64,000 nucleotides of DNA from Candidatus Micrarchaeota archaeon (GCA_964588555.1 CAZPPT010000004.1:73698-137697), one strand, 5' to 3'; numbered from the stretch's first letter, positions 27,440-58,744 are shown. Notes: generated by a model from the letters alone, not told the origin. Numbers and translations are program-made.

Positions 27440-27782
27440 TCGTTTGGGCAAAAATGGACAATCTTTGTTTTCCTGCGGGTCAAATCGTTCGCTTATTTTC
27501 CTTCTTTTGGTAGAAAAATACTGCGCGTTGCGGCAGGCGCGTTATTGAAAATATTAATTTTAGAAAAAATGAATTTTTGAATTTTGTTTTCTTCGTCGTA
27601 AAAATTAGTTTTTCTTATTTTTTTCGTCGCTCATTTGAATATTTTATGTTTATTGTATTTTTGCTTTTTCCCGACGTAAAATAAAAAATCGGTGATATGT
27701 TTATAAAGTTGTTATGCCGAAAAAGTTCTTTGTAATTTTCTCCCAGAAAAAAATAAACGACCAAACAAGAACAGGTGTTTTT

Positions 27783-29234
27783 ATGAAAGAGCCAGCAGTT
27801 GTAACGTCAGATGTAATGCCCGCCCAGGGTGCACATGAAGTTGTGGTAGTTAAGAAAGGTTACTTAAGCAACCTCAGGAAGGAAGTGCTTGGAAGCGCTG
27901 AAGCACTTTCAGGCTCCGAAAATATCGTGCTTCGAAAACTCGGCAACCTTGCAGGGGGTGCATTGAATTCATCGGATTACACCTCTCCGCTTGAGTCAAA
28001 GGCAGCATCGCGCATCACTGCAAACTTTTACCTTAATAAGCTCCGCCTTGAAATGTCAATGCCGCAAAGTGAATGGCGGATATTCGTCCGCGACTCCCCG
28101 GACCTGCAGGAAACCATGCTTGACCTTTTTGACATCCGCGTTGCAGAAAGTCTTATTAGGAAATCTACCGTTGACCTTGACGGACATGTGAGCCTGAGCC
28201 GCGAAGAAATCGAGTGTTTTGTCAAATCCGTGTTTTTTTCATCTGCGTATGAAAAAATCGCAGACCGTCTTCTTGGGCATATTTTCAACGTATCCGGCTA
28301 CGATGCCTGCAATGTAATATGGGGATTTTACAATAAGAAGCTCATACGGGGTGAGCGTATCATTGAACATATTGTGCTCCGTGGGGAGGCTTTTCTTGGG
28401 GCACTTATCCAGTCACTCTCAACGCTTGAAGTGCCAAACCGACAATCTATTATCGATAATTTCAGAAGCCGCGTACTTATGGGAGAGCCGCTCATTTCTG
28501 TCATACGCGACCTCCAATTCACCTTTAATGTGCCAGTATCAGCATTGCAACAGTTACGGGACGTCATAATAAAAAACCCATACAATGCAAAGATGCTTGA
28601 AGTCGGGGTTCTTCTTCTCATGGAACATGAGAAGAGCTATCGTCCTTATGATGACTCCGTTGGGTTGGCAACACATCTCTCGAACACCGTTTGGGGCGTC
28701 TATTCAAAGGTGCGCAGGGTAGTGATAAAGCGAAGCTCTCCGCGCGCTAAGAGTTCAAGCAAAGAGCCCCCTTTTGTGTCTGCGGCTGATGCACCATCAA
28801 CGCTTCAAATAACAACTAACGGAAAAAAAGGTGATAATATGAATCTTGCAAATATTTCAAGCGGCGTACAGAAACTTTGCTCACGGGTGACCGATTCGAT
28901 AACCCATAAGAAATGGTCTGGCGGATACGGCACCAAGAAAAGCAGGATCATACATAAGGAAGTGGAAGAAATCAACTCCCCACGAAGCGTCATGCTGGCA
29001 AAGAATGCTCTTTCAGTTGATGATGCGTTTGATGGTTCAGATGATGAGGAGCTGCTTGGATTTGACCTTGACGCGCTTTTGGCACCGGCAGGTTATTCGC
29101 TTGCCCCCAATACGCGCCAAAGCGACCTTAAGCACTACTTTGCAGGCCTGCCGCCGCTCAACCAATTGACGCTTTCCAAATACCATATGGCATTGCAGCA
29201 TGCAAAAAGCGACGGCTTGATTGTGCGGGGATAA
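27783..29234 (+). CDS. Hypothetical protein (484 aa), no recognisable domain
   Basis: Long ORF following a 340 bp AT-rich spacer. ATG at 27783. Confidence 0.45.
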   Translation: MKEPAVVTSDVMPAQGAHEVVVVKKGYLSNLRKEVLGSAEALSGSENIVLRKLGNLAGGALNSSDYTSPLESKAASRITANFYLNKLRLEMSMPQSEWRIFVRDSPDLQETMLDLFDIRVAESLIRKSTVDLDGHVSLSREEIECFVKSVFFSSAYEKIADRLLGHIFNVSGYDACNVIWGFYNKKLIRGERIIEHIVLRGEAFLGALIQSLSTLEVPNRQSIIDNFRSRVLMGEPLISVIRDLQFTFNVPVSALQQLRDVIIKNPYNAKMLEVGVLLLMEHEKSYRPYDDSVGLATHLSNTVWGVYSKVRRVVIKRSSPRAKSSSKEPPFVSAADAPSTLQITTNGKKGDNMNLANISSGVQKLCSRVTDSITHKKWSGGYGTKKSRIIHKEVEEINSPRSVMLAKNALSVDDAFDGSDDEELLGFDLDALLAPAGYSLAPNTRQSDLKHYFAGLPPLNQLTLSKYHMALQHAKSDGLIVRG

Positions 29235-30197
29235 GTAAAAAATAGCGAAAAATTAATCTATATTTTCTCACTCGCCAAAAGATTTTAATTCTCAAGCTGC
29301 TTTCGCAGTTTGCTCTTTCGAGCAAAGGAAATGAAAACGAAGATAAATGTTAACTATAACAAATATGCCATGGATGAAAAATTAGCTGAGCTTATTGGTA
29401 TTCTTTTAGGAGATGGATGTATCAGTACCTATCATTGTAAATCAGGTAACAAAGGACAAACCCAATACCGAATAAAAATAACCCTTAATGCAATTAAAGA
29501 TTTAGAATACTCAAATTATGTGAGTACTCTACTTGAACACATATTTAAGCAAAAACCAAAAATTTATTTTAGAAAGGATGAGAATACCTTAGATATATAC
29601 CTACTGGGAAAGCAACATGTAGATTTTCTACTTAATCTTGGTATGACCTTATCTCCTAAATGGGCTAGGGCTCAGATACCAAAAGAATTTATTTTGCCCC
29701 CACTAGATAAATTTGTAGTTCGGGGATACGCTGATACAGATGGATGTATCTGTAATGTAAATAATAACGGTATTCGTTATCCCCGAATTGAAATGAAAAT
29801 TTGTCCTTCTCCAATGCAATCTCAGTTTATTCAAATTCTTAAGAATAATGGATTTGAACCTCAAATAAACAAACTTGAAAGAGGTAAAATACGAATTGCG
29901 CTTTCTGGGATGAAGAAATTAAAGAAATGGTTAGACTTAATCGGCTTTTCTAATAAGAGAAATATAACTATGGCAGAATATTTTATAAAAGAAATAGCGG
30001 GAGGTAGATTTGAACTACCGACCTTTACCCATGCTTTAGATAAATAATCTTCTAAATGCATTTCGGGTTATGAGCTTCGTCCCAAACCTTTAGTAAACTT
30101 ATAATAAATACCTAAAAGTTCGGTCCGACGGGAACTCCAGGCTCCCCCATCCCGCTTTTAATAAGGATTATATTTATATTGCCAATCCTTTATAAAG
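29235..30197 (+). mobile_element. Low-GC insertion carrying the free-standing LAGLIDADG endonuclease gene. It is flanked by hairpin-forming noncoding DNA.
   Basis: Sharp compositional drop. Hairpins AGCTGC-TTTC-GCAGTT and TTTGCTC-TTTC-GAGCAAA sit immediately upstream of the ORF. Confidence 0.5.
29310..30047 (+). CDS. Double-motif LAGLIDADG homing endonuclease
   Basis: Motif 1 LIGILLGDGCI and motif 2 VRGYADTDGCI are separated by about 100 aa. GC is around 30-35%, well below the flanking DNA. Confidence 0.8.
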   Translation: MLFRAKEMKTKINVNYNKYAMDEKLAELIGILLGDGCISTYHCKSGNKGQTQYRIKITLNAIKDLEYSNYVSTLLEHIFKQKPKIYFRKDENTLDIYLLGKQHVDFLLNLGMTLSPKWARAQIPKEFILPPLDKFVVRGYADTDGCICNVNNNGIRYPRIEMKICPSPMQSQFIQILKNNGFEPQINKLERGKIRIALSGMKKLKKWLDLIGFSNKRNITMAEYFIKEIAGGRFELPTFTHALDK

Positions 30198-30743
30198 TTG
30201 TTGATATGTATGGCTGGCAAAATGAAAGGCAGTGAAGGAACTGGCGCTAAAATTATCAGCTTAGGCGAAAGACGGGAAACTCCATTTCGTGCACGAAGCC
30301 CCTCCCCTGAAATTTCGAGAATTTCGGCAATGCAGGTAATTTCTGAAATTCAAGGCATTTTAGCTGAGTGGGCTGAAGATGTTCAGCAAGCACTCAGGAT
30401 TCCCAGAGACGGCCTATTTAAGCGTAGGGATCAGGATGGCGCCACATTGTATTCTTCTGACGACCAATTCACCATTACATCAGTCATTAACTTATTTAGT
30501 GGGGCATTGGAAGTGCCTTCAAAACTTCCGGACTATGGATTTGCCATTTATGAAACACCTGGCAGCACATACTTTGTTCTTTTTGATTCAGAGCGAAACA
30601 TCTGTATTCGCCAAAAAATCATGCGTACCTTAGTCAATCCGGCAAATGCAACCTGGGCCGACGTTGCCCGTACAATTACTTATGCGGAAAAGCAAGCGAG
30701 CACAAGCGGACAAACGGCTCTTGTCGACAAAGAATCGTTTTAA
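30198..30743 (+). CDS. Hypothetical protein (181 aa)
   Basis: ORF converging tail-to-tail with the giant gene, with a 4 nt overlap. Confidence 0.4.
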   Translation: MLICMAGKMKGSEGTGAKIISLGERRETPFRARSPSPEISRISAMQVISEIQGILAEWAEDVQQALRIPRDGLFKRRDQDGATLYSSDDQFTITSVINLFSGALEVPSKLPDYGFAIYETPGSTYFVLFDSERNICIRQKIMRTLVNPANATWADVARTITYAEKQASTSGQTALVDKESF

Positions 30744-33700
30744 GTTGGCGCAGGCGGCGGCACGGTTGGTTTTTCAAGGCTCTGCAGCACCTGTTTTGCA
30801 TCCCTTCTAAATACGAGAACCGCCTGGTTTAAGACTCCGTTTTTTGCAAACTGGTCCATCGTATCACTGCCGTACGTATCGTTTAAGTGCTTATCAAATG
30901 CACGCACATTTCGCGCTTCTTCTCCAGAAAGTTTTGCAATTTCCGTCTCGTTCCCCCTCACCTGCATATACAGGAGCCGTAAGTTTTCCGCCCTCTCGCT
31001 TACGAGAACCTCATCATGGAGCCGGCCCATCGTCCCGGCGAAATCATCGGCACCGTTTTGCCTTAGGAATTGGTCAAATACCGGGATCACCCCAACTTTT
31101 ATTTTTTCCCCATCTTTGGCCGTGATTGTTTTTTCTGCAACCAATGTACTCCTTCCTTCAGTGTCAGTCATTACATAGCGGTCCATCCCATTGGAGGGCC
31201 GCGGTTCGGAGGGGGTCTCGTCTCTTGCAAGTTGGTCAAGCTGGGCCTGCGTAAGCCTTCTTCCGACCCCGTATTGTTTTCCATCATTATCCTTAAAATG
31301 CCTTGTCATGCTTCTTCTATACGCAGGCGTACTCCCGACACCCCGATACCAGCGTGCCGCACCTCGCATGAGCGGACCATCGTTGTGTTCGCCAAATGCC
31401 CTGCCTGCGATATCTGCAATCGAATGAGTACTGCCGTATTCACTGTTTGTTTGCCTTGTAAGTTCTACAAAAAATCGCAGCATATCTTCTCCGCCAACCC
31501 GTTCTATGAGCATCGAATCATCGAGCGTACCGTCGCCATTTACCTTTATATGGAAATCGGCAAAGCTGTCATTGTCAATATTCCCAAATTTGAGCACGAC
31601 CGTTTTTGTTCCCTCGCCACTTGGCACTTCAAGAACCTTGTAACCGTTACTTTTGAGCCACGCAACATCTGCCCTGCCAGTTACTTCAAGTGCCATGATG
31701 ACAAGGTTTGCATTCCGTCGATCCCATGCCCCGCTGCTTATTGAGCCGGCATATGCATACCCGAGCTCTTCAAATAATGTATCCTGGTTGTTCATGACAA
31801 TGTCCCGAAGCGCCTTATTGCCTTCAGTTTTAAGGTCATTAAGCTCTGATGCAAGCATTGTTTTTACTTTGATCGCCCTCCCCTTTGTTCCTGTTTTTGA
31901 TTCAAAGGAAACCTTTCCTTGGAAATCATTGATACTTTTGGAAACGCCATACGTTACTTTTTGGCCGGTGAGCGGGTCAACAAACGCAAGCGGCCTGCCC
32001 CCAATGCGGGTTATGGTTTCAGGCGCCGGCATATTTGAAATAAGTGAGGCCTTTGCACCGGTCGCTTCCGGCGTGAGGTTCTGTTCTTTTATATAAACGG
32101 TTTCGCGTTTCCCATCCTTTCTCTGTAGCGTGACGCTAAATGCGCCCCTGTCAGTAGCATAACCTTGTTCTGCACTGCCAATTTGATTTGTATGGTTTAC
32201 CCCGATAATCTTGGTTCCTGCACCTGCCGTCGGACTGAGTGCGTCAAGCAGCTGTCCGGTTGTAAGTATTGCAAGGAGTCTCGCACGGCGTTGGTTGCCG
32301 ATGATGTTCGGCCCAAGCCCCTCCCCGAACCGTACGCCCATATTTTCCAGTTGGTCAAAAACAACAAATCGCGCTTCTTCCTCACGGATGAACGAAATGA
32401 GCTGTGCGTCTGTTGGTCCCTTTTCACCAAACCTCCCGTATAATGCCGCCCCTATTGATTTTTCTTCATTGCTGAGCGCATCCCACCGCTTGAGTCCGCG
32501 GTTTATCTCCATTTGCTGTTCTTCAGTAAGGGTTCCCCATACTGTGTTATTTCTTTTTTTCTCAAGAAGCGGCTTTGCCGTTGCATATGCCTCCATTAAC
32601 CCGCTTAAGTCATTGAGTTCCGATGTTGATACTTCCCTCGTGGCGGATGCAGTGTATTCCCTTGTAAGAAATCCCCTTTTAGTTCCTAATGTTCCTTCAA
32701 GTGCCCTTAATCCCTCAAGCTCGTTTTGAACCACAGGGGGCGTACGTGCCCTTCTTCTTAACAATCGCCCTATTGTTTGTCTGGTTTCCCTTGCGGTTGC
32801 GGCTATCCGCTCTTTTATTTCACGTAGTCTTTGCCTGAATGTCCTTTGCGCCGGTTTTGCCGTGGTTTCTGGAAGCACTGGCTGTTCTACGCGTTTTTTA
32901 GTCGGCGGCGCAAATTCAGGTACAGTGCCTGTCCGCGGGGCTTGCGTTCCATGCATTCTAGATTGTCTAACGGGGACGTTCTTTTCAGGCATCGTGGTTC
33001 TTCGTTCTTTTGGTTTTTGCGCAATGCGAGCGGTTTCTTCCCTTACGCGTACAACCGCTGTTTTTTCTACTGGTGCTTGCCTTGGCAGTTTTCCTCCCGT
33101 AATTGTCACCTCGCCCGCACTTTCGTATTCTTCAATTGCCATTGCAAGCATTGCGCGCCTAAACTCGTCTATCTGGCGTACATGGTCCCTTCTCCTTCTT
33201 TTTAGGTTGGCAACCTCTTCTTTTTGTTTCCCATTCTTGCGCTTTATACCTGAGAGTATTTTTAGTCGTCCATCTATCAGCCCTATTTGCCGTGCATTTT
33301 CAGCTACTGCGCCTGCTGCCACCTTAAAGAGCGGCTTATTCGCGAGGTTTTCAACCGTACCCGCTTTCTCAGGCGAGACATCGTCAATACTTTTTTTATC
33401 TCGTACAATTTGTTCTGCTTCACTTATTCGTGCGATTACCTCTTCTGCATCAGCCCGTGAAAGCGTATGTGTGGCATCACGCCCGGTCAGTATGAACCGT
33501 TCTTTTCCTTCTTCGTCTACCGACCTACTGGTAAATGCGTTTTCCCATTGGAGGCGTTCACTGTCTACGTTTGGCTCTTGGCGGGGCATTCGCCCAACGT
33601 GGGTCATTTCCCTTTCCCGTGCCGTTTCCTCTCCTATTGGAGGTTGCACCCTACTTCGTATTTGTTCAGTCCGTTCATAGCGAAGCTCCCCTTCTTCTGT

Positions 33701-36700
33701 TCTTTGGGCAATAGTTGGATCAGATCCCTCGTCCGGAACGAGTTTTCCACTTAGTGTTTCTCCTGATTCAAGATCGATCTCTTTAGTTTTTTCTACCACT
33801 CGAAGAGTCGGTTCTCTTTTCTTTTGTCCCGCGTCAACGCGTTCATTGTACGCATCAATACTTCTTTGCATTCTTTCAGGCACTGTACCAACCGGACGCA
33901 TTCTTCCGCTTTTGGGATCAATATCCACCTGTATCATTCGTTCCGGCCTTGTGTTGCTTGCATTTATTACATTTTCGTCCTTATCTATGCCAATTGTCAC
34001 AGGTTGCCACTCTGTCCGTTCATCCCCGACTGCCCGCCGTACCATACGTTGTGCCTGCGCCTGCAGGTTAAGTGCCATAAGGGCGTCCGCCATTTCTTCC
34101 GTAGACTGGGCTGCTCTTTGCGTTTGTGCCTCTTTTGGTTTTGTTCCTTTAAGCCACGCAAAGAACGACTCCTTGTCAAACCGGCCGGTCCGTATCTCAT
34201 CTTCTGAAATGGTCTTCCTTACTTTCTGCCCGTTTTCCATATATTCAAATTCATATCGTGTCCCGTTTCTTGTTGCCCGCGCATTGTGTGTCACTCCTTC
34301 CTTTCGAAGTTCATCGGTTGTAACTCCAAAAACCCGTTTTAGGAACCGTTCACGCGCACTTTGCGCCTGCGTTCGTAGCGTGGGCGGCGCTTCTGGTTGC
34401 ATAGCGACGGTCGCTTCCGGTTTTATAACCACCGTTGGTTCCTCGCGCGGTTTTGGTGGAGTAAAATCAACTCGGGTTCTCTCTGTTGATCTATCCCGTG
34501 GTTCAATTGGTATTATTTTTGCAACCGGTTCGTCCTTAACTGCCCCCCGCGTTTCTTCGCTGCGTGGTTTTGGTTCAATACGTCCGATCGGTACGCGCGC
34601 ACTTTTTTGTGCCTCACGCTGCCGGCGTACTTCGTCAAGCGAGATGACTTTAGTGACCGGTTCTTGTTTTATTTCATCCGCAACAATATTTTTCGCTGCC
34701 ATGGCTGCCCTTTGGAGATCTCCTTTAGACAAATTACCTTTTGGCAGCATACGGGCCGCTTCCTGAATCGCGCGGGGGAGCGACTGCAATTTCTGTGGGT
34801 CGTTTCGTGCCGCAACAATTTGTTCAGCCACATTGCGGATGCGTTGTTCAACCGCCGAAGCACTAGCCCCCGGTTTCATCTCGCTCACAAATGTCTTTAC
34901 AAACTGCTTTATTCCTTCCCATGCCGCATCAGTATAAACGGTGTATTGGCTTCCGACGCTGTGCATTTTCTTGACGCCCGCATCTTCTTCGGCCTTTGTT
35001 GCTGCAATGGAATCGCTTGCGGCCTGTGCCCCCGCTTCCCGTGCTTTTTTAATTGCTGCGCTTATACGTGTGGGGGGTTTTGCCCGCGGTTTTTCGCTTC
35101 CTTCTGCAATTGATTGATATGTTCTCTTCACCTCTTCAAGCCGTGCACGGTATGCCGCCGTGTCAAGGCCTCCCTCGCCCCCCCGCAGTGCCGCAACCTC
35201 AAGCTCCGCAATTGCCCGGGCATACACTTTCCGTCGCTCTTGAGCTGGCAGCTGTTCAGCCTCTGCAACCATCCTTAGGACCGAACCGACTTCCTCCTGG
35301 ATTATTCTTGCTTTTGCATCTTTTAGGTTCCCAACCGCGCCGATCCGTGCGAACCGCCTTTCAATCATCGATTCGGGAAAGATAATTCCTCGTGCGCGTT
35401 CTCTAGCCTTTTTTGCATGTTCACGTAATCTATCTACTACTGTTTGTGCAGAGGGTTCAGTTGCTTCTTGTGGCATGATTGCTTTTTGAGGTGCAGCTTG
35501 CTCAACTTTCCTCCCGATTGGGACGCGCGCAATATATTCGTTAAAATCCATCGTCTCGCTAAAGAGGTTTCCCGTATCCCTGTTCTTTGTATAGTATCCA
35601 TTCACAAGCGCAGCTGCCTCAGCAACGTCAAATACGCCTTTTGCATTATAACGCCCAAGAATGGCAACCGATTCCTCATCTGTAAGTGCCCTTCCTATAA
35701 GGTGTTCAAGCTGTGCATACCCCGTCCGCACTTCTTTTGAGCTTGCGCGATATGCTTGTGTTCGTGCCTGTTCAAGTGCCATGGCCTGCTGCCGCTCAAA
35801 TTCGCCTTTTGATGCGCCAAACACAAGTCCTGCCGCTGCCCTGAATGCACGCGCACTTCTCGCTTCTGATGTCATGAGCCCGGCATATCTCGTACCAAGA
35901 ACGCGCGTTGCACTCACCTGCATTGCAGACTGCGCTGAAGAAAATCCCGTTACGAGCGCCTCGGCTAAACCCATTTGTCCTGCCTGATACGCCCCCATAT
36001 TGGTTGCAATAGTGCTTGCGCCAAGTACCAGGCCCCCACCAAGTAGTCCAGTTCCGATTACCCGGGCAGTTCTCGATCCCTGCGCAATGAGCCCAAGTTC
36101 GGTTGCTGCAGAGAACTTTGCACCGGCTATCCCAAGGCCGATTCCTGCAAGTGAGAGCGCGTGCTGTTCGGCAGTGAGCCCACTTGCACCTGCCGTTTGT
36201 ATTTGGCTATAGTAATCAATACTTCCGCTTGTTGCATAATATGCGGCAATTACGGGAGACAGCGTACCACCGCTTAGCACGTTTGCGATATTTGCAGCAA
36301 CAAACTCTGTCCCCACACGTACGGCACGGACAGTACTTTCAATTTCCTGCCCCCTCTTATATAGTGACGCAATGCTGCTTTCGGCAGTTGCAGCGCCTCT
36401 TCTGAGCCTTCCACGCAGTTGCTGTTGGAGAAACGGGTCATTGTTTTTGGTTATGCTGCCCGTAATCTGTCCGGTTTCTTTTGCCTGTGCGAGTGCCTGC
36501 CGGTACATCCCTTTTCGTTCCTCTGCGTTGAAAACACTCGTAAGGCTTGCGGCGGTCAGGAATGTTTGCACGTTTGCCCAGAGGGTTGCGTATGCAAGGT
36601 TATATGTCTTTTGCTGTTCTTGCGTAAGGCTCATTTTTTCATAACGATTCGTACCACTAACAGGTGTATAGCCAAGTGATGCAAGCATTGCAGCACTGTA

Positions 36701-39337
36701 CGCTCTCACTATTTCCCGTGCAGCTTTTCCATCCTGTAGCGAAAGCGCATTTATCTTTTCGAGAGCGACTGCCTGCGGCTCAAGCCCCCGTTTTTGGAGG
36801 ATCATCGGTACGGTATCCCTGAGCGCACCAAGCTGGATCGTTGTCGCGTCCCGTCCAGTTCGGGCACCTCGCACATTTATCCGTATCGCGTCAAGCGTTA
36901 TCAATTTTCCGCTTTCAAGTGCCCCAATTGCATCTTCAGGACGGTCGCGCGCATAGTTTGCAAGCTGTACGAGCCTTCCGGCACTATCACGTACGATACT
37001 TGCAAATAGCCCTTCGCCCCGATGATAGCGCTCGCTTTCATCAGTCCGCTCCAGTGCGGAAAGCGCTTCGTTATAGAGCGTGACCGCAAGGTTCCAGCCA
37101 GCTGTTTTTTTCTGGTACGTTTCAAAAATTTTCGCCCCGTCTTCCGGTTTACTGTTTCGTATCATGCCTGCAAATGCGCGCATTTCATTGCGCAATTTTT
37201 CGATTTCAGGCATTACGGCCGCAACGCGTTCGCTTCTGGCTTTTTTTGCCTCTTCATCTTCATTTAATTGAACTGCCCCAAATTTCGCAAGATCGCGCTC
37301 CTGTCTTGCCACTGCATCAGTAATCATTCTTTTTTTGCTTTCCATTTCCTGGGCCTTTGCGGCATTTTGTACATATGTTATAAGTTCTCCTTGCGCCTTT
37401 CTCCAGCTTATTGTTTTGCCCATCCGTGCATACCCTTCAAGTTCGCTTACTCGTTTTTTGATTTCCGTCTGTACGGCTTCGCTATCAAAGTACGCAAGTT
37501 TTTCGTCTTTTCTTTCACGTCCGGATCCGTTTTCCACAAGCAACGCGCGCGTTTTTCGTATCGCATCCTTTTGACCGGCGGTGTTGATGGTAAGTCCCAC
37601 TATGTCAAGAATACGTGCCGCCTTTACAAGTTCTTCTTCCTGAACGAATTTCTGCGCCCTTCTTAGTTCTTCCTCCTGCCTTGGTGCGATTATTGCATAG
37701 ATCGGGTTTTCACGTGCCATTTCCTTACTTGCGGTACGAAGTTCTTGTATTGCCCTTAACAAAATTTTCTGATTATTTTGTTTTAGGCGCGTTTCTTCAA
37801 ACCGGTTAAATGCATCAATTGCCCCTTTGAGCGTTTCATTACTTTGCGCAAGCAACGCTTGTTGTCCCGGCCCTATCTTGCCCTCTTCAATGATCGTTGC
37901 AGCCGCATTTGACATTCCTTGTGCCGCCGTAAGAAATCCTTCCTTACCTGCCCCCTTGCGGTTTGCAATACATTCAAGGGCACCACCAAGTGCCACTGCA
38001 CCCTGTGCCGAAATGCGCAAAAGTTCAGCCCCTCGTTCAAACGACTCGTCAATTGAATGAGCGTTTTTTGTAAGCGCAGTCCCCTCCTGTATGATCCTTC
38101 TAATTACGGTTAGCCTGGGTGCTATTTCGTCAATGTCAGCATCCCTTACTTTTTTCATATTCGCTTCTAGTTGGGCGAGTGTCCGTTCGACTGCATGCGC
38201 TTCCAGTTGCATCCCCTGTTTTGCAATCTCAAGCTGGAGGCGGAGTACCCGGCTTGCACTTGCCTCTCCCGGTTCGTCCATTGCCCCTTCTTTTTCTGCA
38301 AGGAGGTGCGCAACCGTTATATCTTTTTGCCGAGCTTCTGCAAGTAAGGGGGCGGTCCTTTCAACATACTCAATTGTTTCCTTTGTGCCTGCTTTATTCG
38401 CCTGCGCTGTAACATACAGCTGCGCAAGGTCAAGTGAGATGCATGCATCAATTCGGTTTTCCTCTTTAGCAAACTCAATTGCAAGCGCGTAATACCCATC
38501 AAGAACCTCTTGCGCACCCTTGTCCTTTAGCTGTACTTTTTGTGCATATACCTGTGTAATGCCATCAATTACCCCATATGTAATTTCGCCCTTTGCAAAT
38601 GTTTCGCTTAGTGTAAGAATTTCTTTCTTATCCGTTTCTTGAGCTGTTGTATAGAGAGAAGCAAGTCCTGTGTGTACAAATGCTTCTTGTTCCTTTCCTT
38701 CCTCAATTGCACGGCGCGCCCGCCCATAAAATGCATCAATTGCCCCGCTATCTTTTTCAGGGGCACGTGCCTTTAGCGTTTCTGCCTCTTGTGAGAGCGC
38801 ATCTGCCATTCTCTTTTGATGTATGCCTATAATTTGCACTTCTGATTTTCCCTCAAGTGATACAATAAATTCTTCTAGTGTGCGTGTGTCTTGTCCGCTT
38901 TGTTTACGGGCAAGGATCTCATGTCCATAATTAAGGATCGTTGCCGACCCGCCATCAAAGTCATGCGCATATTTGTTTGCCGCACTCCCAATTATTTTTA
39001 GCGCCCCTTGGGCTGCTTGTGCCGTTTGCAGTTCACCATAAAGTTTCAATACGTTTCCGATCTGCACTACGGCTGCAAGCGCATGTTCTGCCTGCGCAGC
39101 GTTTCCATTTTTATGAAGCTCTCGTGCATGGGTAAGTAGTTCATATCCCCGTTTGTACGTTTCCTGAAGCGGCCACCGCGCACTTTCACTTTTTAGTTGT
39201 TCGACTGCTTGTTCCGCTTGCCCTATGCTTGCTTGGATCCGTGCCTTTGGGTCACTGTGCGGCATTCCAAGTTCAGACGGTAGCCCTTTAAGGAGTTTTT
39301 CTGCCTCATCAATTCTTTCTGCAAACGTCGGCGCCAT
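30740..39337 (-). CDS. Giant protein (2865 aa). It is predominantly alpha-helical and rich in A/E/K/Q/R, with a central Gly-rich hydrophobic segment and a more globular C-terminal region of about 700 aa. There is no N-terminal signal peptide. Function unknown.
   Basis: Uninterrupted 8.6 kb ORF, too long to arise by chance. The five other frames hold only short low-complexity ORFs. The segment GIGLGIAGAKF...GTGLLGGGLVLGASTIATNMGAY is encoded at about 35990-36200. Confidence 0.8.
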   Translation of the reverse strand: MAPTFAERIDEAEKLLKGLPSELGMPHSDPKARIQASIGQAEQAVEQLKSESARWPLQETYKRGYELLTHARELHKNGNAAQAEHALAAVVQIGNVLKLYGELQTAQAAQGALKIIGSAANKYAHDFDGGSATILNYGHEILARKQSGQDTRTLEEFIVSLEGKSEVQIIGIHQKRMADALSQEAETLKARAPEKDSGAIDAFYGRARRAIEEGKEQEAFVHTGLASLYTTAQETDKKEILTLSETFAKGEITYGVIDGITQVYAQKVQLKDKGAQEVLDGYYALAIEFAKEENRIDACISLDLAQLYVTAQANKAGTKETIEYVERTAPLLAEARQKDITVAHLLAEKEGAMDEPGEASASRVLRLQLEIAKQGMQLEAHAVERTLAQLEANMKKVRDADIDEIAPRLTVIRRIIQEGTALTKNAHSIDESFERGAELLRISAQGAVALGGALECIANRKGAGKEGFLTAAQGMSNAAATIIEEGKIGPGQQALLAQSNETLKGAIDAFNRFEETRLKQNNQKILLRAIQELRTASKEMARENPIYAIIAPRQEEELRRAQKFVQEEELVKAARILDIVGLTINTAGQKDAIRKTRALLVENGSGRERKDEKLAYFDSEAVQTEIKKRVSELEGYARMGKTISWRKAQGELITYVQNAAKAQEMESKKRMITDAVARQERDLAKFGAVQLNEDEEAKKARSERVAAVMPEIEKLRNEMRAFAGMIRNSKPEDGAKIFETYQKKTAGWNLAVTLYNEALSALERTDESERYHRGEGLFASIVRDSAGRLVQLANYARDRPEDAIGALESGKLITLDAIRINVRGARTGRDATTIQLGALRDTVPMILQKRGLEPQAVALEKINALSLQDGKAAREIVRAYSAAMLASLGYTPVSGTNRYEKMSLTQEQQKTYNLAYATLWANVQTFLTAASLTSVFNAEERKGMYRQALAQAKETGQITGSITKNNDPFLQQQLRGRLRRGAATAESSIASLYKRGQEIESTVRAVRVGTEFVAANIANVLSGGTLSPVIAAYYATSGSIDYYSQIQTAGASGLTAEQHALSLAGIGLGIAGAKFSAATELGLIAQGSRTARVIGTGLLGGGLVLGASTIATNMGAYQAGQMGLAEALVTGFSSAQSAMQVSATRVLGTRYAGLMTSEARSARAFRAAAGLVFGASKGEFERQQAMALEQARTQAYRASSKEVRTGYAQLEHLIGRALTDEESVAILGRYNAKGVFDVAEAAALVNGYYTKNRDTGNLFSETMDFNEYIARVPIGRKVEQAAPQKAIMPQEATEPSAQTVVDRLREHAKKARERARGIIFPESMIERRFARIGAVGNLKDAKARIIQEEVGSVLRMVAEAEQLPAQERRKVYARAIAELEVAALRGGEGGLDTAAYRARLEEVKRTYQSIAEGSEKPRAKPPTRISAAIKKAREAGAQAASDSIAATKAEEDAGVKKMHSVGSQYTVYTDAAWEGIKQFVKTFVSEMKPGASASAVEQRIRNVAEQIVAARNDPQKLQSLPRAIQEAARMLPKGNLSKGDLQRAAMAAKNIVADEIKQEPVTKVISLDEVRRQREAQKSARVPIGRIEPKPRSEETRGAVKDEPVAKIIPIEPRDRSTERTRVDFTPPKPREEPTVVIKPEATVAMQPEAPPTLRTQAQSARERFLKRVFGVTTDELRKEGVTHNARATRNGTRYEFEYMENGQKVRKTISEDEIRTGRFDKESFFAWLKGTKPKEAQTQRAAQSTEEMADALMALNLQAQAQRMVRRAVGDERTEWQPVTIGIDKDENVINASNTRPERMIQVDIDPKSGRMRPVGTVPERMQRSIDAYNERVDAGQKKREPTLRVVEKTKEIDLESGETLSGKLVPDEGSDPTIAQRTEEGELRYERTEQIRSRVQPPIGEETAREREMTHVGRMPRQEPNVDSERLQWENAFTSRSVDEEGKERFILTGRDATHTLSRADAEEVIARISEAEQIVRDKKSIDDVSPEKAGTVENLANKPLFKVAAGAVAENARQIGLIDGRLKILSGIKRKNGKQKEEVANLKRRRRDHVRQIDEFRRAMLAMAIEEYESAGEVTITGGKLPRQAPVEKTAVVRVREETARIAQKPKERRTTMPEKNVPVRQSRMHGTQAPRTGTVPEFAPPTKKRVEQPVLPETTAKPAQRTFRQRLREIKERIAATARETRQTIGRLLRRRARTPPVVQNELEGLRALEGTLGTKRGFLTREYTASATREVSTSELNDLSGLMEAYATAKPLLEKKRNNTVWGTLTEEQQMEINRGLKRWDALSNEEKSIGAALYGRFGEKGPTDAQLISFIREEEARFVVFDQLENMGVRFGEGLGPNIIGNQRRARLLAILTTGQLLDALSPTAGAGTKIIGVNHTNQIGSAEQGYATDRGAFSVTLQRKDGKRETVYIKEQNLTPEATGAKASLISNMPAPETITRIGGRPLAFVDPLTGQKVTYGVSKSINDFQGKVSFESKTGTKGRAIKVKTMLASELNDLKTEGNKALRDIVMNNQDTLFEELGYAYAGSISSGAWDRRNANLVIMALEVTGRADVAWLKSNGYKVLEVPSGEGTKTVVLKFGNIDNDSFADFHIKVNGDGTLDDSMLIERVGGEDMLRFFVELTRQTNSEYGSTHSIADIAGRAFGEHNDGPLMRGAARWYRGVGSTPAYRRSMTRHFKDNDGKQYGVGRRLTQAQLDQLARDETPSEPRPSNGMDRYVMTDTEGRSTLVAEKTITAKDGEKIKVGVIPVFDQFLRQNGADDFAGTMGRLHDEVLVSERAENLRLLYMQVRGNETEIAKLSGEEARNVRAFDKHLNDTYGSDTMDQFAKNGVLNQAVLVFRRDAKQVLQSLEKPTVPPPAPT

Positions 39338-39341
39338 ATGA

Positions 39342-39584
39342 TCAGCTAAGTTCGCGCAGCATGCCGTGCAACTCTATAAGCATGATCGGCCGTGCATCCT
39401 GTGTAGTCTGTAAAAAATTGCCCCTCCAGTTTTCAAGCCGGTCCTTCCATAAAACGAGGCGCTCAAAGCGCGCTTTATAGCGTACCTTGGTTTTTGTATC
39501 GAGGCGTTCCCAGTCTTTCATGACTGTGTCTATGGATGAAAGCGCCTTGTCAACTAAGAAAACTGCTTCTTCCTCTGAATCCAT
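39342..39584 (-). CDS. Small hypothetical protein (80 aa), translationally coupled upstream of the giant gene
   Basis: Its stop lies 4 nt before the giant gene's ATG. Confidence 0.45.
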   Translation of the reverse strand: MDSEEEAVFLVDKALSSIDTVMKDWERLDTKTKVRYKARFERLVLWKDRLENWRGNFLQTTQDARPIMLIELHGMLRELS

Positions 39585-39618: not shown

Positions 39619-40149
39619 CTACTTAGCATTAAAAGATGCAATTTTTGAGTAGTGGGGCCCCGAGGCAGTAAGGACGCTTTCCTTAAGCATAAAATCGGTG
39701 CATTCGAATGCCCCAAAATCGGTATGTGCGTATTTTTCAAGAAACGATTGTAAATCAAGTTTTCGCTTTACCCGTGCAATGGTAATGTGTCCTTTAAACG
39801 GTTCCTGCCCACATTCGCGTGCGAGTGCATTATTTACATTATCCGCAAGCAGTTCGAGTTCTTTACCTTTCGCGCCCGCCCATATGACCTGCACATGCCG
39901 TTCGTTTGGAAACACGCCGATCCCATGCACGTTGATTAAAAACGGGTCGAACGAAACTGTCTTGAGCACCCCTCTTACTTCCTCAACTTTTTTCCCGTCA
40001 ATCTCGCCAAGGAATTTAAGCGTGAGGTGGAGATTCTCCTTTCCCACTAATTTTATTCCGTCACGAGGTAATTCCTCCTGCACTTTTGCAAGTTCGTCGC
40101 GAATCGGTTCAGGAAGTTCAATTGCAATAAAAGAGCGCATGTCATCCAT
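39619..40149 (-). CDS. ligT: RNA 2',3'-cyclic phosphodiesterase / 2'-5' RNA ligase (2H phosphoesterase)
   Basis: Two H-x-T/S-x motifs (HLTLKF, HITIAR). Confidence 0.75.
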   Translation of the reverse strand: MDDMRSFIAIELPEPIRDELAKVQEELPRDGIKLVGKENLHLTLKFLGEIDGKKVEEVRGVLKTVSFDPFLINVHGIGVFPNERHVQVIWAGAKGKELELLADNVNNALARECGQEPFKGHITIARVKRKLDLQSFLEKYAHTDFGAFECTDFMLKESVLTASGPHYSKIASFNAK

Positions 40150-40408
40150 CTTCTTTCACAAAGTCCTTAATCCCTTTTCCTTTTGGAAACGCCGTTCCAA
40201 GTGGCGAACGGGCCGGAAGCTGGAACTGTTCTGCAAGTTTTGTCAGGTCAATTGGGGGGATTTTTGCATTTGTTGTTAAAATAAGTGCCGTGCCGTAGGG
40301 CGTCCTTTCTTCAGTTACGGCAAGCCTATGCCTTTGAATGATCCCTGCAAGGCGAATGCGGACGTCAACAAACCCTGTCTTTAGAATTTCTTCTTTTGTC
40401 GGTTCCAT
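40142..40408 (-). CDS. Hypothetical small protein, 8 nt overlap with the ligT start
   Basis: ORF in an operon arrangement with ligT. Confidence 0.35.
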   Translation of the reverse strand: MEPTKEEILKTGFVDVRIRLAGIIQRHRLAVTEERTPYGTALILTTNAKIPPIDLTKLAEQFQLPARSPLGTAFPKGKGIKDFVKEDG

Positions 40409-40441
40409 AAAGAAAAATAGTAATAAGAAGTATTTAATTAC

Positions 40442-41020
40442 CTATGAGGAAAATGAGCGCGGCCTACGGGATTGTGGCATGCGCGGTTGTTCGACCCGTT
40501 TTATTGTCGTGAATGTTCTTACGGGTTTCTCTGCAATGCGTGCACGATTTTTATCAGCCATTTGATCTGCGCGCTCTTTTCGTCGTGCCGAATCTTGCAG
40601 TATAAAATCCTTAACGCCCCGCGGGGTTTGCGGATCCCTAAAAAGATCCACAATCTGAGTTCTTTTATCCTTTTTGCTATACATGGTGACTAACGCTGTC
40701 CCTGCCTCGACACGTATCGATTCATCGATAGCTGGATCCTTTGTCATTTGTTCAAGAACCACGGTATCTTTTCTTTTTACCGCTGCACTTACCGCGCCCT
40801 TTCCCGCAGCCTCCTGTAAGGTTGCGCTTAATTTATCGTTTTTATGCCATTCGATAAGGATGTCCGGTACTCCTGCATTAACCATGAGCGCAATTGCACC
40901 TTTCCCTGCTTCTTCCCTTACCTGTTTATTGGTTGTCCCTTCGAATATCCCAAATAGTGCGTCGATATCATCATTTGCTATAGCCTTCCGTACTGCTTCC
41001 ATTTCATTTATGCGTGCCAT
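40442..41020 (-). CDS. Hypothetical protein (192 aa), alpha-helical with a basic C-terminus
   Basis: ORF with no recognised domain. Confidence 0.4.
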   Translation of the reverse strand: MARINEMEAVRKAIANDDIDALFGIFEGTTNKQVREEAGKGAIALMVNAGVPDILIEWHKNDKLSATLQEAAGKGAVSAAVKRKDTVVLEQMTKDPAIDESIRVEAGTALVTMYSKKDKRTQIVDLFRDPQTPRGVKDFILQDSARRKERADQMADKNRARIAEKPVRTFTTIKRVEQPRMPQSRRPRSFSS

Positions 41021-41855: not shown

Positions 41856-42371
41856 ATGATCTTTAGCGACGTTGACATCAAGGCGCTTCTTGCGTCCGGC
41901 GAACTAAAAATCGTCCCGCTTGCATATGATCAGATCGGCGGTGCAAGCATCGACCTTACCCTCAGTGACGAGTGGTACGTATTTAAGAAAGGGTATCTGG
42001 GCTCTCATGTTGATTTGAAAAAAGTCGATTTCAAACGCGCGATGAAAAAGGTAAAATCACGGTCAATTACGCTTAAACCCCAGGAAATGTGTCTTGGGAA
42101 AACGCTTGAAAAGCTGACGCTACCAACATATGTCATGGGAACGCTTGAAGGGCGTTCCCGCTATGCGCGCATGGGCCTTGCAGTGCATATCACAAGTGCG
42201 CTTGTGCAGCCGGGAAGCGACAACCATCAGGTTCTTGAGATCGTCAATTTCGCCCCCTTTGCCGTGACGCTCCATGCAGGCATGCGCATCTCGCAGGTTG
42301 TATTCGAATACCTCACGTCGCCGACCTCAAGGCCGTATGCGCGCTTTGGGACAATCGCAAAAAAACAGTGA
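41856..42371 (+). CDS. dcd: dCTP deaminase (dUTPase superfamily)
   Basis: MIFSDVDIKALL...GASIDLTL... GRSRYARMGLAVH... matches the dCTP deaminase family. Confidence 0.7.
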   Translation: MIFSDVDIKALLASGELKIVPLAYDQIGGASIDLTLSDEWYVFKKGYLGSHVDLKKVDFKRAMKKVKSRSITLKPQEMCLGKTLEKLTLPTYVMGTLEGRSRYARMGLAVHITSALVQPGSDNHQVLEIVNFAPFAVTLHAGMRISQVVFEYLTSPTSRPYARFGTIAKKQ

Positions 42372-42375
42372 TTTT

Positions 42376-43014
42376 ATGAAAATGAGTACCGTTGCCCAGT
42401 ACGCGATTCTTTCGTTTGTCGTCTTCATTATTATCGTCATATTTGGGGGGATGATCTTTACCCCTTCATTTCCCGATGAATTTACCTTTAATGAAGAACC
42501 GCTTGTTAAGAACACCAAGTTGCAGATCCGGCCAAGTGAGCTTTATTCATACGTCTATACTGTAAATGGAACAAACAATACGCTTTCATTTCGAACCGGG
42601 CAGGCGCCCGACTGTGTCTTTATCCAGGTCGTTGAGGCAGTAAACAGGACTGGCACGTGCGTTGACGCTGATGGGAATGACCGTCTTGGAAGCAATGCAA
42701 CCCTTGCAGTGCCGTTTATCACCTTTTTTAAGCCATGGATGCTTGCCGTTCGTGATGGGTGGGAGTGGGGTGTGAACATGACCATAAATGCGACAGGTGG
42801 CGAATTGGTACTAAAGACATTTAAGTATGAGGTAGTGGGGGCTCAAACCATTCACGGGCGCGATAGCTTTGTCGTACGCATCGGCTCAAATGAAGTTGGC
42901 GAGGAGATCGTTACAACCTGGGTCGACAAGGAAAAACGGGTAATGCTTCGGGAAGAAGGGCCAAACTATAATGTGACGCTTGTACGTTCCCCGTTTTTTA
43001 ATGCATCGGGCTAG
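42376..43014 (+). CDS. Hypothetical membrane-anchored/secreted protein (N-terminal TM helix)
   Basis: MKMSTVAQYAILSFVVFIIIVIFGGMIF. Confidence 0.4.
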   Translation: MKMSTVAQYAILSFVVFIIIVIFGGMIFTPSFPDEFTFNEEPLVKNTKLQIRPSELYSYVYTVNGTNNTLSFRTGQAPDCVFIQVVEAVNRTGTCVDADGNDRLGSNATLAVPFITFFKPWMLAVRDGWEWGVNMTINATGGELVLKTFKYEVVGAQTIHGRDSFVVRIGSNEVGEEIVTTWVDKEKRVMLREEGPNYNVTLVRSPFFNASG

Positions 43015-55153: not shown

Positions 55154-55384
55154 GGTATAGTCATATATAATTTCCTTCGATTTTTACTACAGTAGCGTGC
55201 GAGCCCTCTCGGGGGCGCGTTGTAGTGCGCAAATTTATACTGTCAGTAGAATCGTTGTCTCTCCAATGCTTTGGAGAATTTATGCGTGTGAAGCGGTGAC
55301 AAGAAATTGTACATACTCTGAGGAATTAGTCCTCGGTATAAAAGAAGTGAGAATCCTAATATTATTAGGGATATGTAATGCTAT

Positions 55385-58300: not shown

Positions 58301-58655
58301 CCACATGAGCTGGGTTCAATACGTCGCGAGACAGTATGGTAGTATCTCCTAGGAGTGTAGGTTCTTGAGAGTAAGAATGCCTGAGTACGAGAGGAACGGG
58401 CATTCGGCGCCTCTAGTCTACCGGTTGTTATTTAGCACTGCCGGGCAGCCACGCGCCACATGGATAAGATCTGAAAGCATTGAAACTTTTAGGAAAAGTT
58501 TCATCAAAACCGATTACCTAAAAGCTTCGCTTAACTAAGATCGAAGCCATTCTTAAAACTAGGAACCAAAGTCCGCCCATAGCAGATGGGTTTGATAGGA
58601 CCGGGGTGTACGTGTTAAGCGCAAGCGAGACATTCAGCCTACGGTTACTAAAGGA
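55385..58655 (+). rRNA. rrl: 23S ribosomal RNA, archaeal type, not linked to a 16S gene. About 3.27 kb, with several lineage-specific AT-rich insertions.
   Basis: Conserved blocks: GGATGGCTTGGC near the 5' end, GACTGTTTATCAAAAACACAG, the archaeal-signature AAGGTAGCGTAATACCTCGCCGC..GGCGGCTTGCATGAATGG, GGATAACAGGCT, CCTAGTACGAGAGGAAC and GTTTGATAGGACCGGGGTGTA. The ends are approximate. Confidence 0.85.
57956..58125 (+). other. Insertion of about 170 nt in the 23S rRNA at the tip of the helix-89-equivalent, adjacent to the peptidyl-transferase centre. Either an expansion segment or a small ORF-less intron.
   Basis: Aligning to the E. coli block GATAACAGGCTGATACCGCCCAAGAGTTCATATCGACGGCGGTG leaves CAAAACTCTTGACTC...GGTTAGAGTTTTGG...TCGTATAAA inserted between GAGAGTACA and TCGACCCCGCGGT. 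It contains the internal inverted repeat CAAAACTC/GAGTTTTG. Confidence 0.5.
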
Positions 58656-58744
58656 TTATTTCTTACATATCAAAACTTACTTCTGGTGTGTCGTTTCTTG
58701 TCACCTGCTTTTCATAAGCATATTTTATTTCTTTTTCTTTATAG

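Follow-up and report, generated by a model that had tools for sequence, protein, structure and literature searches.

What is the role of a 2865-residue protein in a small-genome archaeon, and with which partners does it act? The question is raised by a 64,000-nucleotide stretch of DNA from Candidatus Micrarchaeota archaeon (GCA_964588555.1 CAZPPT010000004.1:73698-137697), the whole of which is here called the window. An earlier reading of this stretch, referred to below as the original prediction, had pointed to a giant helical protein coupled to an 80-residue partner gene. The locus is a three-gene cassette specific to Micrarchaeota, consisting of a small helical protein, the giant, and a convergent cytoplasmic protein of ~180 amino acids (aa). 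The giant carries a C-terminal domain predicted to adopt a kinase fold of the PI3K/PI4K type and a conserved central hydrophobic module. We infer, at a probability of roughly 0.45, that it is a membrane-inserted kinase of the symbiont-host interface with one chaperone-like and one inhibitor- or immunity-like partner. The genes of the cassette, counted from the first letter of the window, are:

30740..39337, minus strand: giant gene, 2865 aa, a single uninterrupted open reading frame (ORF) by ORF listing and translation, stop codon at 30740-30742.
39342..39584, minus strand: gene of the 80-aa small partner, whose predicted structure is wholly helical and in which two Trp (W25, W53) are conserved.
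30210..30743, plus strand: gene of the convergent partner, called by NCBI as 177 aa from the ATG at 30210; the ORF as listed mechanically begins with TTG at 30198.

The relatives of the giant were found through its C-terminus. A phmmer search with residues 2180-2865 against 1.84e9 cluster representatives returned 38 proteins that have a kinase domain of ~350 residues. Every relative with a source name comes from Micrarchaeota, Micrarchaeia or Bilamarchaeaceae. An alignment of 23 kinase domains including that of the giant (A1) showed that Asp2539, Asn2544 and Asp2588 (Asp155, Asn160 and Asp204 of A1) are invariant, and that Lys2417 (Lys33) and Asp2590 are at least 90% conserved. The domain and its predicted active-site elements are located as follows:

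31118..32185, minus strand: protein-kinase-like domain of PI3K/PI4K type, residues 2385-2740.
32087..32089, minus strand: Lys2417, which closes a beta strand (VYIK) and is predicted to bind ATP; conserved in A1 at 90% or more.
31706..31732, minus strand: catalytic loop GAWDRRNAN, residues 2536-2544, with Asp2539 and Asn2544 invariant in the family.
31568..31579, minus strand: IDND, residues 2587-2590, predicted counterpart of the Mg-binding DFG, with Asp2588 invariant.

The family consensus reads GxxGAY ... K(R)QDLRPD ... GxxDRHxxN ... GxIDTD ... FGxxxxGPxxxGxxxW. Lys2417, Asp2539, Asn2544 and Asp2588 are all intact in the giant, and IDND comes after a strand of the predicted secondary structure, as DFG does. 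The Gly-rich loop of the giant is degenerate (TDRGAF), and the segment that begins with the ATP-binding Lys reads KEQNLTPE against KRQDLRPD in the family. Arg2541 stands where ~88% of the family have the His of DRH; the closest relative, P0007, also has Arg at this position (DRREAN), and Arg keeps a positive side chain there. The original prediction had described the C-terminus as enzyme-like and had quoted the motif HSIADIAGRAFGEHNDGPLMRGAARWYRGVG from it. The motif is present in the giant and its core, FG..GP..G..RW, is kept in the relatives.

The structure of the kinase domain was modeled with AlphaFold2 (AF2) on A1, with a predicted local distance difference test score (pLDDT) of 87 and a predicted TM-score (pTM) of 0.88. 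The model has a kinase fold, which agrees with the enzyme-like character proposed for this end of the protein. The predicted fold is bilobal and protein-kinase-like, and its nearest structural and (weakly) sequence relatives are in the PI3K/PI4K/PIKK superfamily. The figures for the model were 11.7 for mTOR, 11.3 for Vps34, 11.2 each for SMG1 and PI3Kalpha, 11.0 for actin-fragmin kinase, 10.8 for Tel1, 10.7 for PI4KIIIbeta, 10.1 for CotH, 9.9 for Bud32 and 9.8 for PI4KIIalpha; those for classical protein kinases and aminoglycoside kinases were 8.0 or less. All the matches listed by Foldseek against the PDB are kinase-fold enzymes. Those listed against BFVD are mostly kinases, giant-virus PI3Ks among them.

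At the level of sequence the domain stands apart. It had no match in Pfam, NCBIfam or the PDB sequences, and PDB sequence searches with the C-terminal fragment and with the A1 profile also returned none. Three further profiles of the analysis, A3, A4 and A5, likewise gave no PDB match. PF00454 was matched neither by the giant (cutoff E 0.01) nor by any of the 23 domain sequences, even at E 10. A comparison set of PI3K/PI4K genes was collected from giant-virus contigs with the pattern GxGDRHxxN...DFG and gave a 24-sequence alignment, four giant-virus sequences of which were confirmed as Pfam PF00454 (E 1e-26 to 1e-46). Alignment of A1 to the PF00454 alignment by hhalign gave P 0.0014 and a probability of 18%, with the Lys-DLRxD and DRHxxN motifs in register; in controls, which used reversed profiles or alignments unrelated to the family, P was 0.14-0.86.

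In the PI3K superfamily the catalytic loop is marked by DRH and the activation loop by DFG (PMC7619004). Members of this superfamily (PF00454; mTOR 5wbu, Vps34 2x6f, PI3Kalpha 4ykn, PI4KIIIbeta 8q6f) have the folds closest to that of the giant's domain. The K..DLR.D and G..DRH..N of the archaeal family align with K.(G/E)D(D/I)(M/L/I)R.D and GxGDRHxxN of genuine PF00454 sequences. Around the ATP-binding Lys, KRQDLRPD of the family aligns with K.eDiRkD of PF00454; the giant keeps the Lys (VYIKEQNLTPE) and the next segment is degenerate. The catalytic loop of the family reads G..D(R)H..N, in which Asp and Asn never vary and ~88% of members have the His; in the giant, with Arg for the His, it reads DRRNAN. 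An Asp-containing motif follows a strand at the DFG position in both, and, as in PIKKs, a very large and mostly helical protein carries the kinase domain close to its C-terminus. Other features differ. IDTD (IDND in the giant) replaces DFG. DFG lies 18 residues beyond the catalytic Asp in the PI3K superfamily, whereas IDND lies 49 residues beyond Asp2539 because of an insertion, a helix plus hairpin of ~27 residues (L..GY.V) between the family's catalytic loop and IDTD. The C-lobe signature, FG..GP..G..RW, H.G.P.G.G and NG...DGR, is the family's own. The host organism is archaeal, and the giant lacks FAT, FATC, PIK-helical and C2 domains. With respect to the PIKK subfamily, Pfam gave no FAT, FATC or HEAT match in the giant, the region before the kinase is Pro-rich and charged, and the tail is not conserved.

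Other kinase groups were also compared. The HRDxxxxN, DFG and APE motifs and the Pkinase profile match that mark eukaryotic-type protein kinases (PF00069) were not found. Actin-fragmin kinase (1cja), CotH (5jda), Bud32, Rio and MavQ (7m7a) are other atypical kinase folds; they have no sequence match with the giant and are small, soluble, single-domain proteins that lack a hydrophobic module or giant scaffold. MavQ, a Legionella effector lipid kinase, is a bacterial precedent for a PI-kinase-like effector, and MavQ, LepB and AnkK have PI-kinase-like domains that serve as translocated effectors (PMC9758233). Taken together, the domain represents a new kinase family that would work like the PI3K/PI4K-type kinases and is probably distantly related to them; it does not belong to PF00454.

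Divergent PI3K-like kinases with GDRHxxN...DFG were also seen in two viral contigs, L054 (69.9 kb; 2813-2877) and L045 (49.6 kb; 671-735), that are not labeled as giant-virus genomes. One of the two is the C-terminus of a 1063-aa protein. Against the PF00454 set, hhalign gave P 1.4e-7 for L045 and 1.4e-3 for L054. PI3K-like kinases may be under-recognized in viruses of prokaryotes.

The second conserved part of the giant is hydrophobic:

35603..36415, minus strand: conserved hydrophobic module, residues 975-1245, four helices followed by a small helical subdomain.
35903-36313, minus strand: hydrophobic core, residues 1009-1145, four Gly/Ala/Ser-rich, nearly uncharged helices.

Charged residues make up 6.6% of residues 1009-1145, the lowest value among all 137-residue windows of the giant, and 28.6% of the whole protein. 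The segment is rich in Gly, Ala, Ser and Thr. A single 19-residue window of the giant, residues 1093-1111, exceeds a Kyte-Doolittle value of 1.6 (1.66), the threshold commonly used for transmembrane segments, and the modules of relatives reach up to 1.96. The original prediction had placed a central "glycine-zipper-like hydrophobic segment" here, and the strings it quoted are residues 1065-1124, within DNA ~35948-36160. A Gly/Ala-rich, uncharged segment does lie near the place it gave; the zipper was not supported. The segment has three GxxxG and four zipper matches, counts reached by 1390 and 1571 of 2000 shuffles respectively, and this periodicity is no more than its composition gives.

The module is common to the giant and P0014 (phmmer E 4.6e-11), and was traced by jackhmmer within the family set to P0018, P0012, P0005, P0039, P0027, P0016 and P0036. 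It is kept in at least eight relatives and is, besides the kinase, the sole part of the giant with relatives in that set. The module alignment shows four helices with the conserved turns PVTGGAS, EYY..GGW..MS, GGGLVQ.G and A.E.GQM, followed by the motif GLP.YR...Q..E...FG.P. Shorter relatives have a variant hairpin, E.Y..TG.VSW. The AF2 model of the module is helical throughout with a pLDDT of 61; the score drops to less than 50 in the hydrophobic helices and exceeds 90 at residues ~1185-1245. The low confidence over the hydrophobic helices is consistent with a region that is membrane-embedded or conformationally switchable.

The remainder of the giant comprises three regions:

36416..39337, minus strand: N-terminal region, residues 1-974, A/E/K/Q/R-rich, lineage-specific, without signal peptide.
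32186..35602, minus strand: variable middle, residues 1246-2384, charged, with Pro-rich, probably disordered stretches.
30743..31117, minus strand: C-terminal tail, residues 2741-2865, 125 aa, not conserved.

The size given by the original prediction holds, since the ORF call agrees with it and the NCBI assembly record (a 144-kb contig) contains an identical product. The N-terminus, MAPTFAERIDEAEKLL, is hydrophilic by inspection, and the giant therefore lacks a signal peptide, as had been proposed. The composition of the putatively helical A/E/K/Q/R-rich regions is as had been described. These five residues account for 38-54 per 100 over residues 1-1000 and 1200-2200, but the middle ~900 residues are interrupted by Pro-rich stretches (11 Pro per 100 residues at ~1601-1700 and ~2101-2200) that are probably disordered rather than helical. 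There are two Cys in the whole protein, a search for internal repeats found none, and one isolated Walker-A-like string at residue 635 is without other support.

Residues 1-974 have no relative by phmmer or by iterated hidden Markov model (HMM), the family set included, and none was found for residues 1246-2384 within that set. Thus, outside the kinase and the hydrophobic module, ~2200 residues of the giant are without detectable relatives even within the phylum. The whole giant matched no family in Pfam (E 0.01) or NCBIfam. SMC-like and S-layer proteins had been named as examples of known families; neither was matched in these databases, and the signal peptide is absent. In a word-index homology search the whole giant and the 177-aa partner each matched only itself, a single-protein scan of genome contigs gave no related locus, and no description of the giant-protein family was found in the searchable literature.

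Both partner genes recur beside the relatives. Eleven loci of relatives, three of them with a second giant, supply 13 giants (one runs off its locus), or 14 with that of the window. The 80-aa ORF ends in TGA, followed by the four nucleotides TCAT and then the ATG of the giant. Same-strand homologues of 88-124 aa lie directly upstream of the giant in 10 of the 13 relatives, hence in 11 of 14 cassettes with the window, mostly at a gap of 15 nt or less and in some cases overlapping. These small proteins are homologous to one another and to the 80-aa protein. An HMM built without the latter matched that ORF alone among 549 ORFs of the window (E 1.6e-7), which bears out the pairing of the two genes originally noted. 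The 80-aa protein had no match in Pfam, NCBIfam, PHROG, PADLOC or the PDB. WXG100 was considered for it, with a Trp near the turn, yet the PDB profile search gave only spurious coiled-coil matches and the candidate was dropped.

The 177-aa gene converges on the giant so closely that their overlapping stop codons form the palindrome TTAA. Upstream of the 177-aa gene, at 30168-30197, is a promoter-like box rich in A/T (by inspection). Its product has an unstructured, basic, Pro-rich N-terminus and then a globular part of ~130 residues, with no hydrophobic segment. Convergent homologues of ~150-270 aa stand beside all 13 giants with a readable 3' end (12 relatives plus the window), at gaps of -9 to +33 nt where they directly adjoin. 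They are related to ORF 30198..30743 (plus strand) with blastp E values down to 5e-20, and a leave-one-out HMM of the family (E 1.7e-28) matched this ORF alone in the window. The partner is often amplified into arrays of two to four copies. Three members follow P0012, and in L036 the 3980-aa giant is followed by seven small genes, four of them of this family. The partners gave no match in Pfam, NCBIfam, PHROGs or PADLOC. A second helical family of ~120-210 aa is interleaved in the arrays (L036 872-3244; L039 3433-4585; L002 27817-29111); it is unrelated to the 177-aa family (hhalign P 0.81) and absent from the window.

The relatives are 1300-7300 aa long, most of them giants, with the kinase domain usually near the C-terminus and sometimes present twice. 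They share with the giant two modules only, the kinase and the hydrophobic four-helix module. Two or three paralogues occur per metagenome-assembled genome (MAG), some of them adjacent. At least three members of the family, with 6140, 3396 and at least 1954 aa, are encoded in MAG GCA_040758235.1. Giants are found in adjacent pairs in L002 (8001-26210 and 29626-34210), L036 (1-406 and 5001-26903) and L038 (3466-21909 and 26751-26909); in the L002 and L038 pairs each giant has a separate small upstream partner, and the first L036 giant runs off the locus. Two relatives carry a further domain upstream of the kinase: P0018 (L039 5001-23141) has a HopA1 type-III-effector-family domain (PF17914, residues 4757-4923, E 6.7e-21), and P0023 (L042 5001-23525) has a calcineurin-like metallophosphoesterase domain. 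Four full-length relatives had no match in Pfam. The kinase fold and giant DPANN proteins are of known kinds; the family, the architecture and the cassette are new.

The window is chromosomal. It encodes an archaeal 23S rRNA, phosphoenolpyruvate (PEP) synthase, Dph2, transketolase, glycosyltransferases, asparagine synthase, NAD kinase and LigT. Its PEP synthase shares 79-80% identity with proteins from Candidatus Micrarchaeota MAGs. Because of these ordinary genes and this identity, the window is DNA of a Micrarchaeota (DPANN) chromosome, neither virus nor plasmid, which agrees with the small-genome archaeal host suggested at the outset. Five relatives' loci have a common housekeeping neighborhood, with ProRS-DUF350-DHH upstream (L001, L002, L003, L039) and RTC-NAC-S3Ae-S15 downstream of the cassette (L001, L039, L042); from this it follows that the cassette has long been part of the chromosome in this phylum. 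In the window it is flanked by LigT and NAD kinase. The "island of unknown genes" of the original prediction is thus only partly one: several ORFs are without a match, but the flanks are known genes and the ORF at 30198-30743 (plus strand) is a conserved member of the cassette. The homing endonuclease gene reported beside the pair is there:

29310..30047, plus strand: LAGLIDADG ORF (PF03161 E 5.8e-7; PF14528 E 8e-4).

This ORF is free-standing, outside rRNA, tRNA or intein host genes, and is immediately followed by the promoter region of the 177-aa gene.

How might such a protein work? The giant would be synthesized in the cytoplasm without a Sec signal, and the translationally coupled 80-aa protein may hold or target it as a chaperone or adaptor would. 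The hydrophobic module would then enter a membrane post-translationally and place the C-terminal kinase on the cytoplasmic face, the side that contains ATP. This membrane would most likely be at the contact site with the host archaeon, possibly the host membrane itself. There, with ATP as the donor, the kinase would phosphorylate a lipid head-group or a protein close to the membrane. The convergent partner, with its own promoter and frequent arrays, could be a cognate inhibitor or immunity-like regulator that silences the kinase in the producer. The relatives bearing HopA1 or metallophosphoesterase domains suggest that these proteins may be multi-enzyme delivery scaffolds. A role at the host interface is favored because the rest of the protein evolves extremely fast, because there are multiple paralogues per tiny genome, and because the cognate partner is arrayed and effector-family domains occur in relatives. 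It is also favored by the precedents of PI-kinase-like effectors (PMC9758233; MavQ) and of giant host-interaction proteins in another DPANN group (SPEARE, PMC6642349).

The SPEARE giants of Nanohaloarchaeota reach 8553 aa, are lineage-specific in a DPANN group and, in several copies, account for a few per cent of genomes of ~1 Mb; a role in host interaction has been proposed for them (PMC6642349). They have a transmembrane segment between a large variable part and a conserved enzymatic part, a layout to which that of the giant, with its putative membrane module, corresponds. Serine-protease, laminin-G adhesion and type III restriction-endonuclease domains and a mostly extracytoplasmic disposition are their own features. 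The giant has none of those domains (Pfam) and no signal peptide; it has instead a kinase and two dedicated partner genes. Large clostridial toxins and MARTX are big multidomain proteins with an internal hydrophobic translocation region, and LXG/type VII secretion system (T7SS) cassettes have small helical partners and an immunity gene. The layout of the giant resembles theirs in having no Sec signal, a moderately hydrophobic Gly/Ala-rich region for which conditional membrane insertion is possible, and one or more effector domains, with small helical proteins just upstream and a small cytoplasmic cognate protein by the 3' end. It differs from them in lacking repeats, autoprotease, LXG, PAAR, Rhs and T7SS genes, and no homology was detected.

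Several points weigh against a role at the host interface. The membrane insertion and the substrate are inferred, as are the parts played by the two partners. The hydrophobic helices are borderline transmembrane in this giant (maximum Kyte-Doolittle 1.66) and AF2 is unconfident there, while Arg in place of the DRH His means that the activity of its kinase could be altered. No recognizable secretion or trafficking domain, or secretion system, was found near the cassette. Polymorphic toxins (LXG, Rhs, CdiA, MARTX) have a variable toxin domain and a co-directional immunity gene, whereas here the C-terminal kinase is conserved, the partner is convergent and the giant has no such Pfam domains; the tightly linked, amplified small cognate gene is the sole fitting feature. 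The housekeeping neighborhood of five cassettes points to an old, vertically inherited core function and not a mobile weapon. In addition, a signal-less hairpin of two or four helices would by default leave both arms in the producer's cytoplasm, which favors an endogenous role. The strongest rival, which we hold to be possible although less probable, is a scaffold kinase anchored in the membrane of the Micrarchaeon itself, with both arms in its own cytoplasm, that would act on endogenous lipids or proteins and serve the envelope, division or signaling. The 177-aa protein would then be a substrate or regulator and the 80-aa protein an assembly factor, in a loose parallel to the PIKKs of eukaryotes, which combine a giant helical body with a PI3K-like kinase domain at the C-terminus. 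The missing signal peptide, the even number of hydrophobic helices, the chromosomal position conserved among housekeeping genes in five loci, and a kinase that is the conserved part and not a variable toxin tip all suit this explanation. It fits poorly with a protein that has no similarity to other giants outside two modules even in one phylum, which is unusual for a core scaffold, and with several divergent paralogues per small genome, partner arrays of up to four family copies, and HopA1 effector and phosphoesterase domains in relatives; FAT, FATC and HEAT matches are also missing from Pfam searches.

The same linked partner, small, cytoplasmic, arrayed and with its own promoter, could be read as the antitoxin (~180 aa) of a HipA-like growth-arresting kinase. 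The cassette would then be an addiction or toxin-immunity module directed at other Micrarchaeota cells or at the cell that makes it. This is improbable: a size of 1300-7300 aa and a membrane module are needless for such a toxin, the convergent orientation is atypical, and no PADLOC or toxin-antitoxin Pfam match was found. Still less credible is a catalytically dead pseudokinase that only provides structure or binding within a giant structural protein. The Arg at the DRH His, the degenerate Gly-rich loop (TDRGAF) and KEQNLTPE in place of KRQDLRPD would agree with it, but none of the 23 divergent sequences departs from the catalytic Asp and Asn or from the metal-binding Asp, the Lys is at least 90% conserved, and the giant has all four; the Arg, moreover, recurs in P0007 with the charge kept. 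At the bottom of the scale is the remnant of a virus or mobile element, with the giant as a tape-measure or ejection protein and a chaperone beside it, one of the readings the original prediction had raised. Phage tape-measure proteins are likewise long and helical, at times with hydrophobic Gly-rich segments and C-terminal enzymatic domains, and have small chaperone genes ahead of them. The adjoining LAGLIDADG gene and weak BFVD fold matches to large tailed-virus proteins (haloarchaeal HHTV-1, E 1.4e-3; a Gordonia phage, E 8e-3) point the same way. However, neither the giant nor eight neighbors matched a PHROG, the giant has no tail-related Pfam match, tblastn of the giant gave 0 matches in 50,697 phage and 72,556 plasmid records, and IMG/VR held no relative. 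The expected co-occurrence with virion genes failed as well: no capsid, portal, terminase or tail gene was present in the 12 contexts examined, and the synteny conserved in relatives is of housekeeping genes.

The surroundings of the cassettes showed some other features. RNA end-healing and -sealing genes recur beside them: the LigT 2H-phosphoesterase in the window (39619-40149, minus strand), RNA 3'-phosphate cyclase (RTC) in L001 (24303-25367), L036 (30047-31009), L038 (25355-26317), L039 (24030-24992) and L042 (25759-26721), and an RNA ligase near the cassette in L041 (11854-12966). The recurrence of RTC may be conserved synteny, yet these are three different RNA-repair enzymes in three different neighborhoods. 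An 88-aa ORF overlapping LigT by 8 nt and a 192-aa ORF (40142-41020, minus strand), and a 506-aa ORF (27714-29234, plus strand), had no match in Pfam, NCBIfam, PHROGs or PADLOC, except for a sub-threshold NCBIfam match of the 192-aa ORF to nifA (E 0.035, 12.9 bits against a cutoff of 528.85 bits). The 192-aa and 506-aa products are singleton clusters in a collection of 15 billion proteins. The 23S rRNA gene (55370-58671, plus strand) is 3302 nt long against a model of 2987 positions, so ~300 nt are extra, as insertions or an intron. The 64-kb window holds no 16S rRNA, 5S rRNA or tRNA gene, and the rRNA genes are thus unlinked. The dCTP deaminase gene (41856-42371, plus strand) overlaps by ~98 nt a 246-aa ORF (42274-43014, plus strand) that has no family match and whose true start is probably further downstream.

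What had been an anonymous 8.6-kb ORF is now a three-gene cassette with two mapped modules, four predicted catalytic residues and two partners. If the host-interface reading were taken further, the cassette could be the first recognized archaeal cell-to-cell effector system, and its kinase a deeply branching prokaryotic lineage of the PI3K/PI4K/PIKK superfamily, which is otherwise in essence eukaryotic, although this is unlikely. The symbiont's giant would enter the host membrane through its hydrophobic module and expose the kinase to the host cytoplasm, where it would phosphorylate inositol lipids or proteins of the host; relatives would also present HopA1-like and phosphoesterase domains, and the small partners would provide chaperoning and self-immunity. 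Little is known of the means by which DPANN archaea attach to their hosts and exploit them, and giant genes are among the few lineage-specific candidates. The kinase family lies outside Pfam and NCBIfam, and its closest relatives, PI3K, PI4K and PIKK, are hallmarks of eukaryotic membrane and stress signaling; an archaeal branch would bear on the origin of this superfamily. Genomes of ~1 Mb presumably devote several per cent of their coding capacity to this system, which argues for its importance to the organisms.

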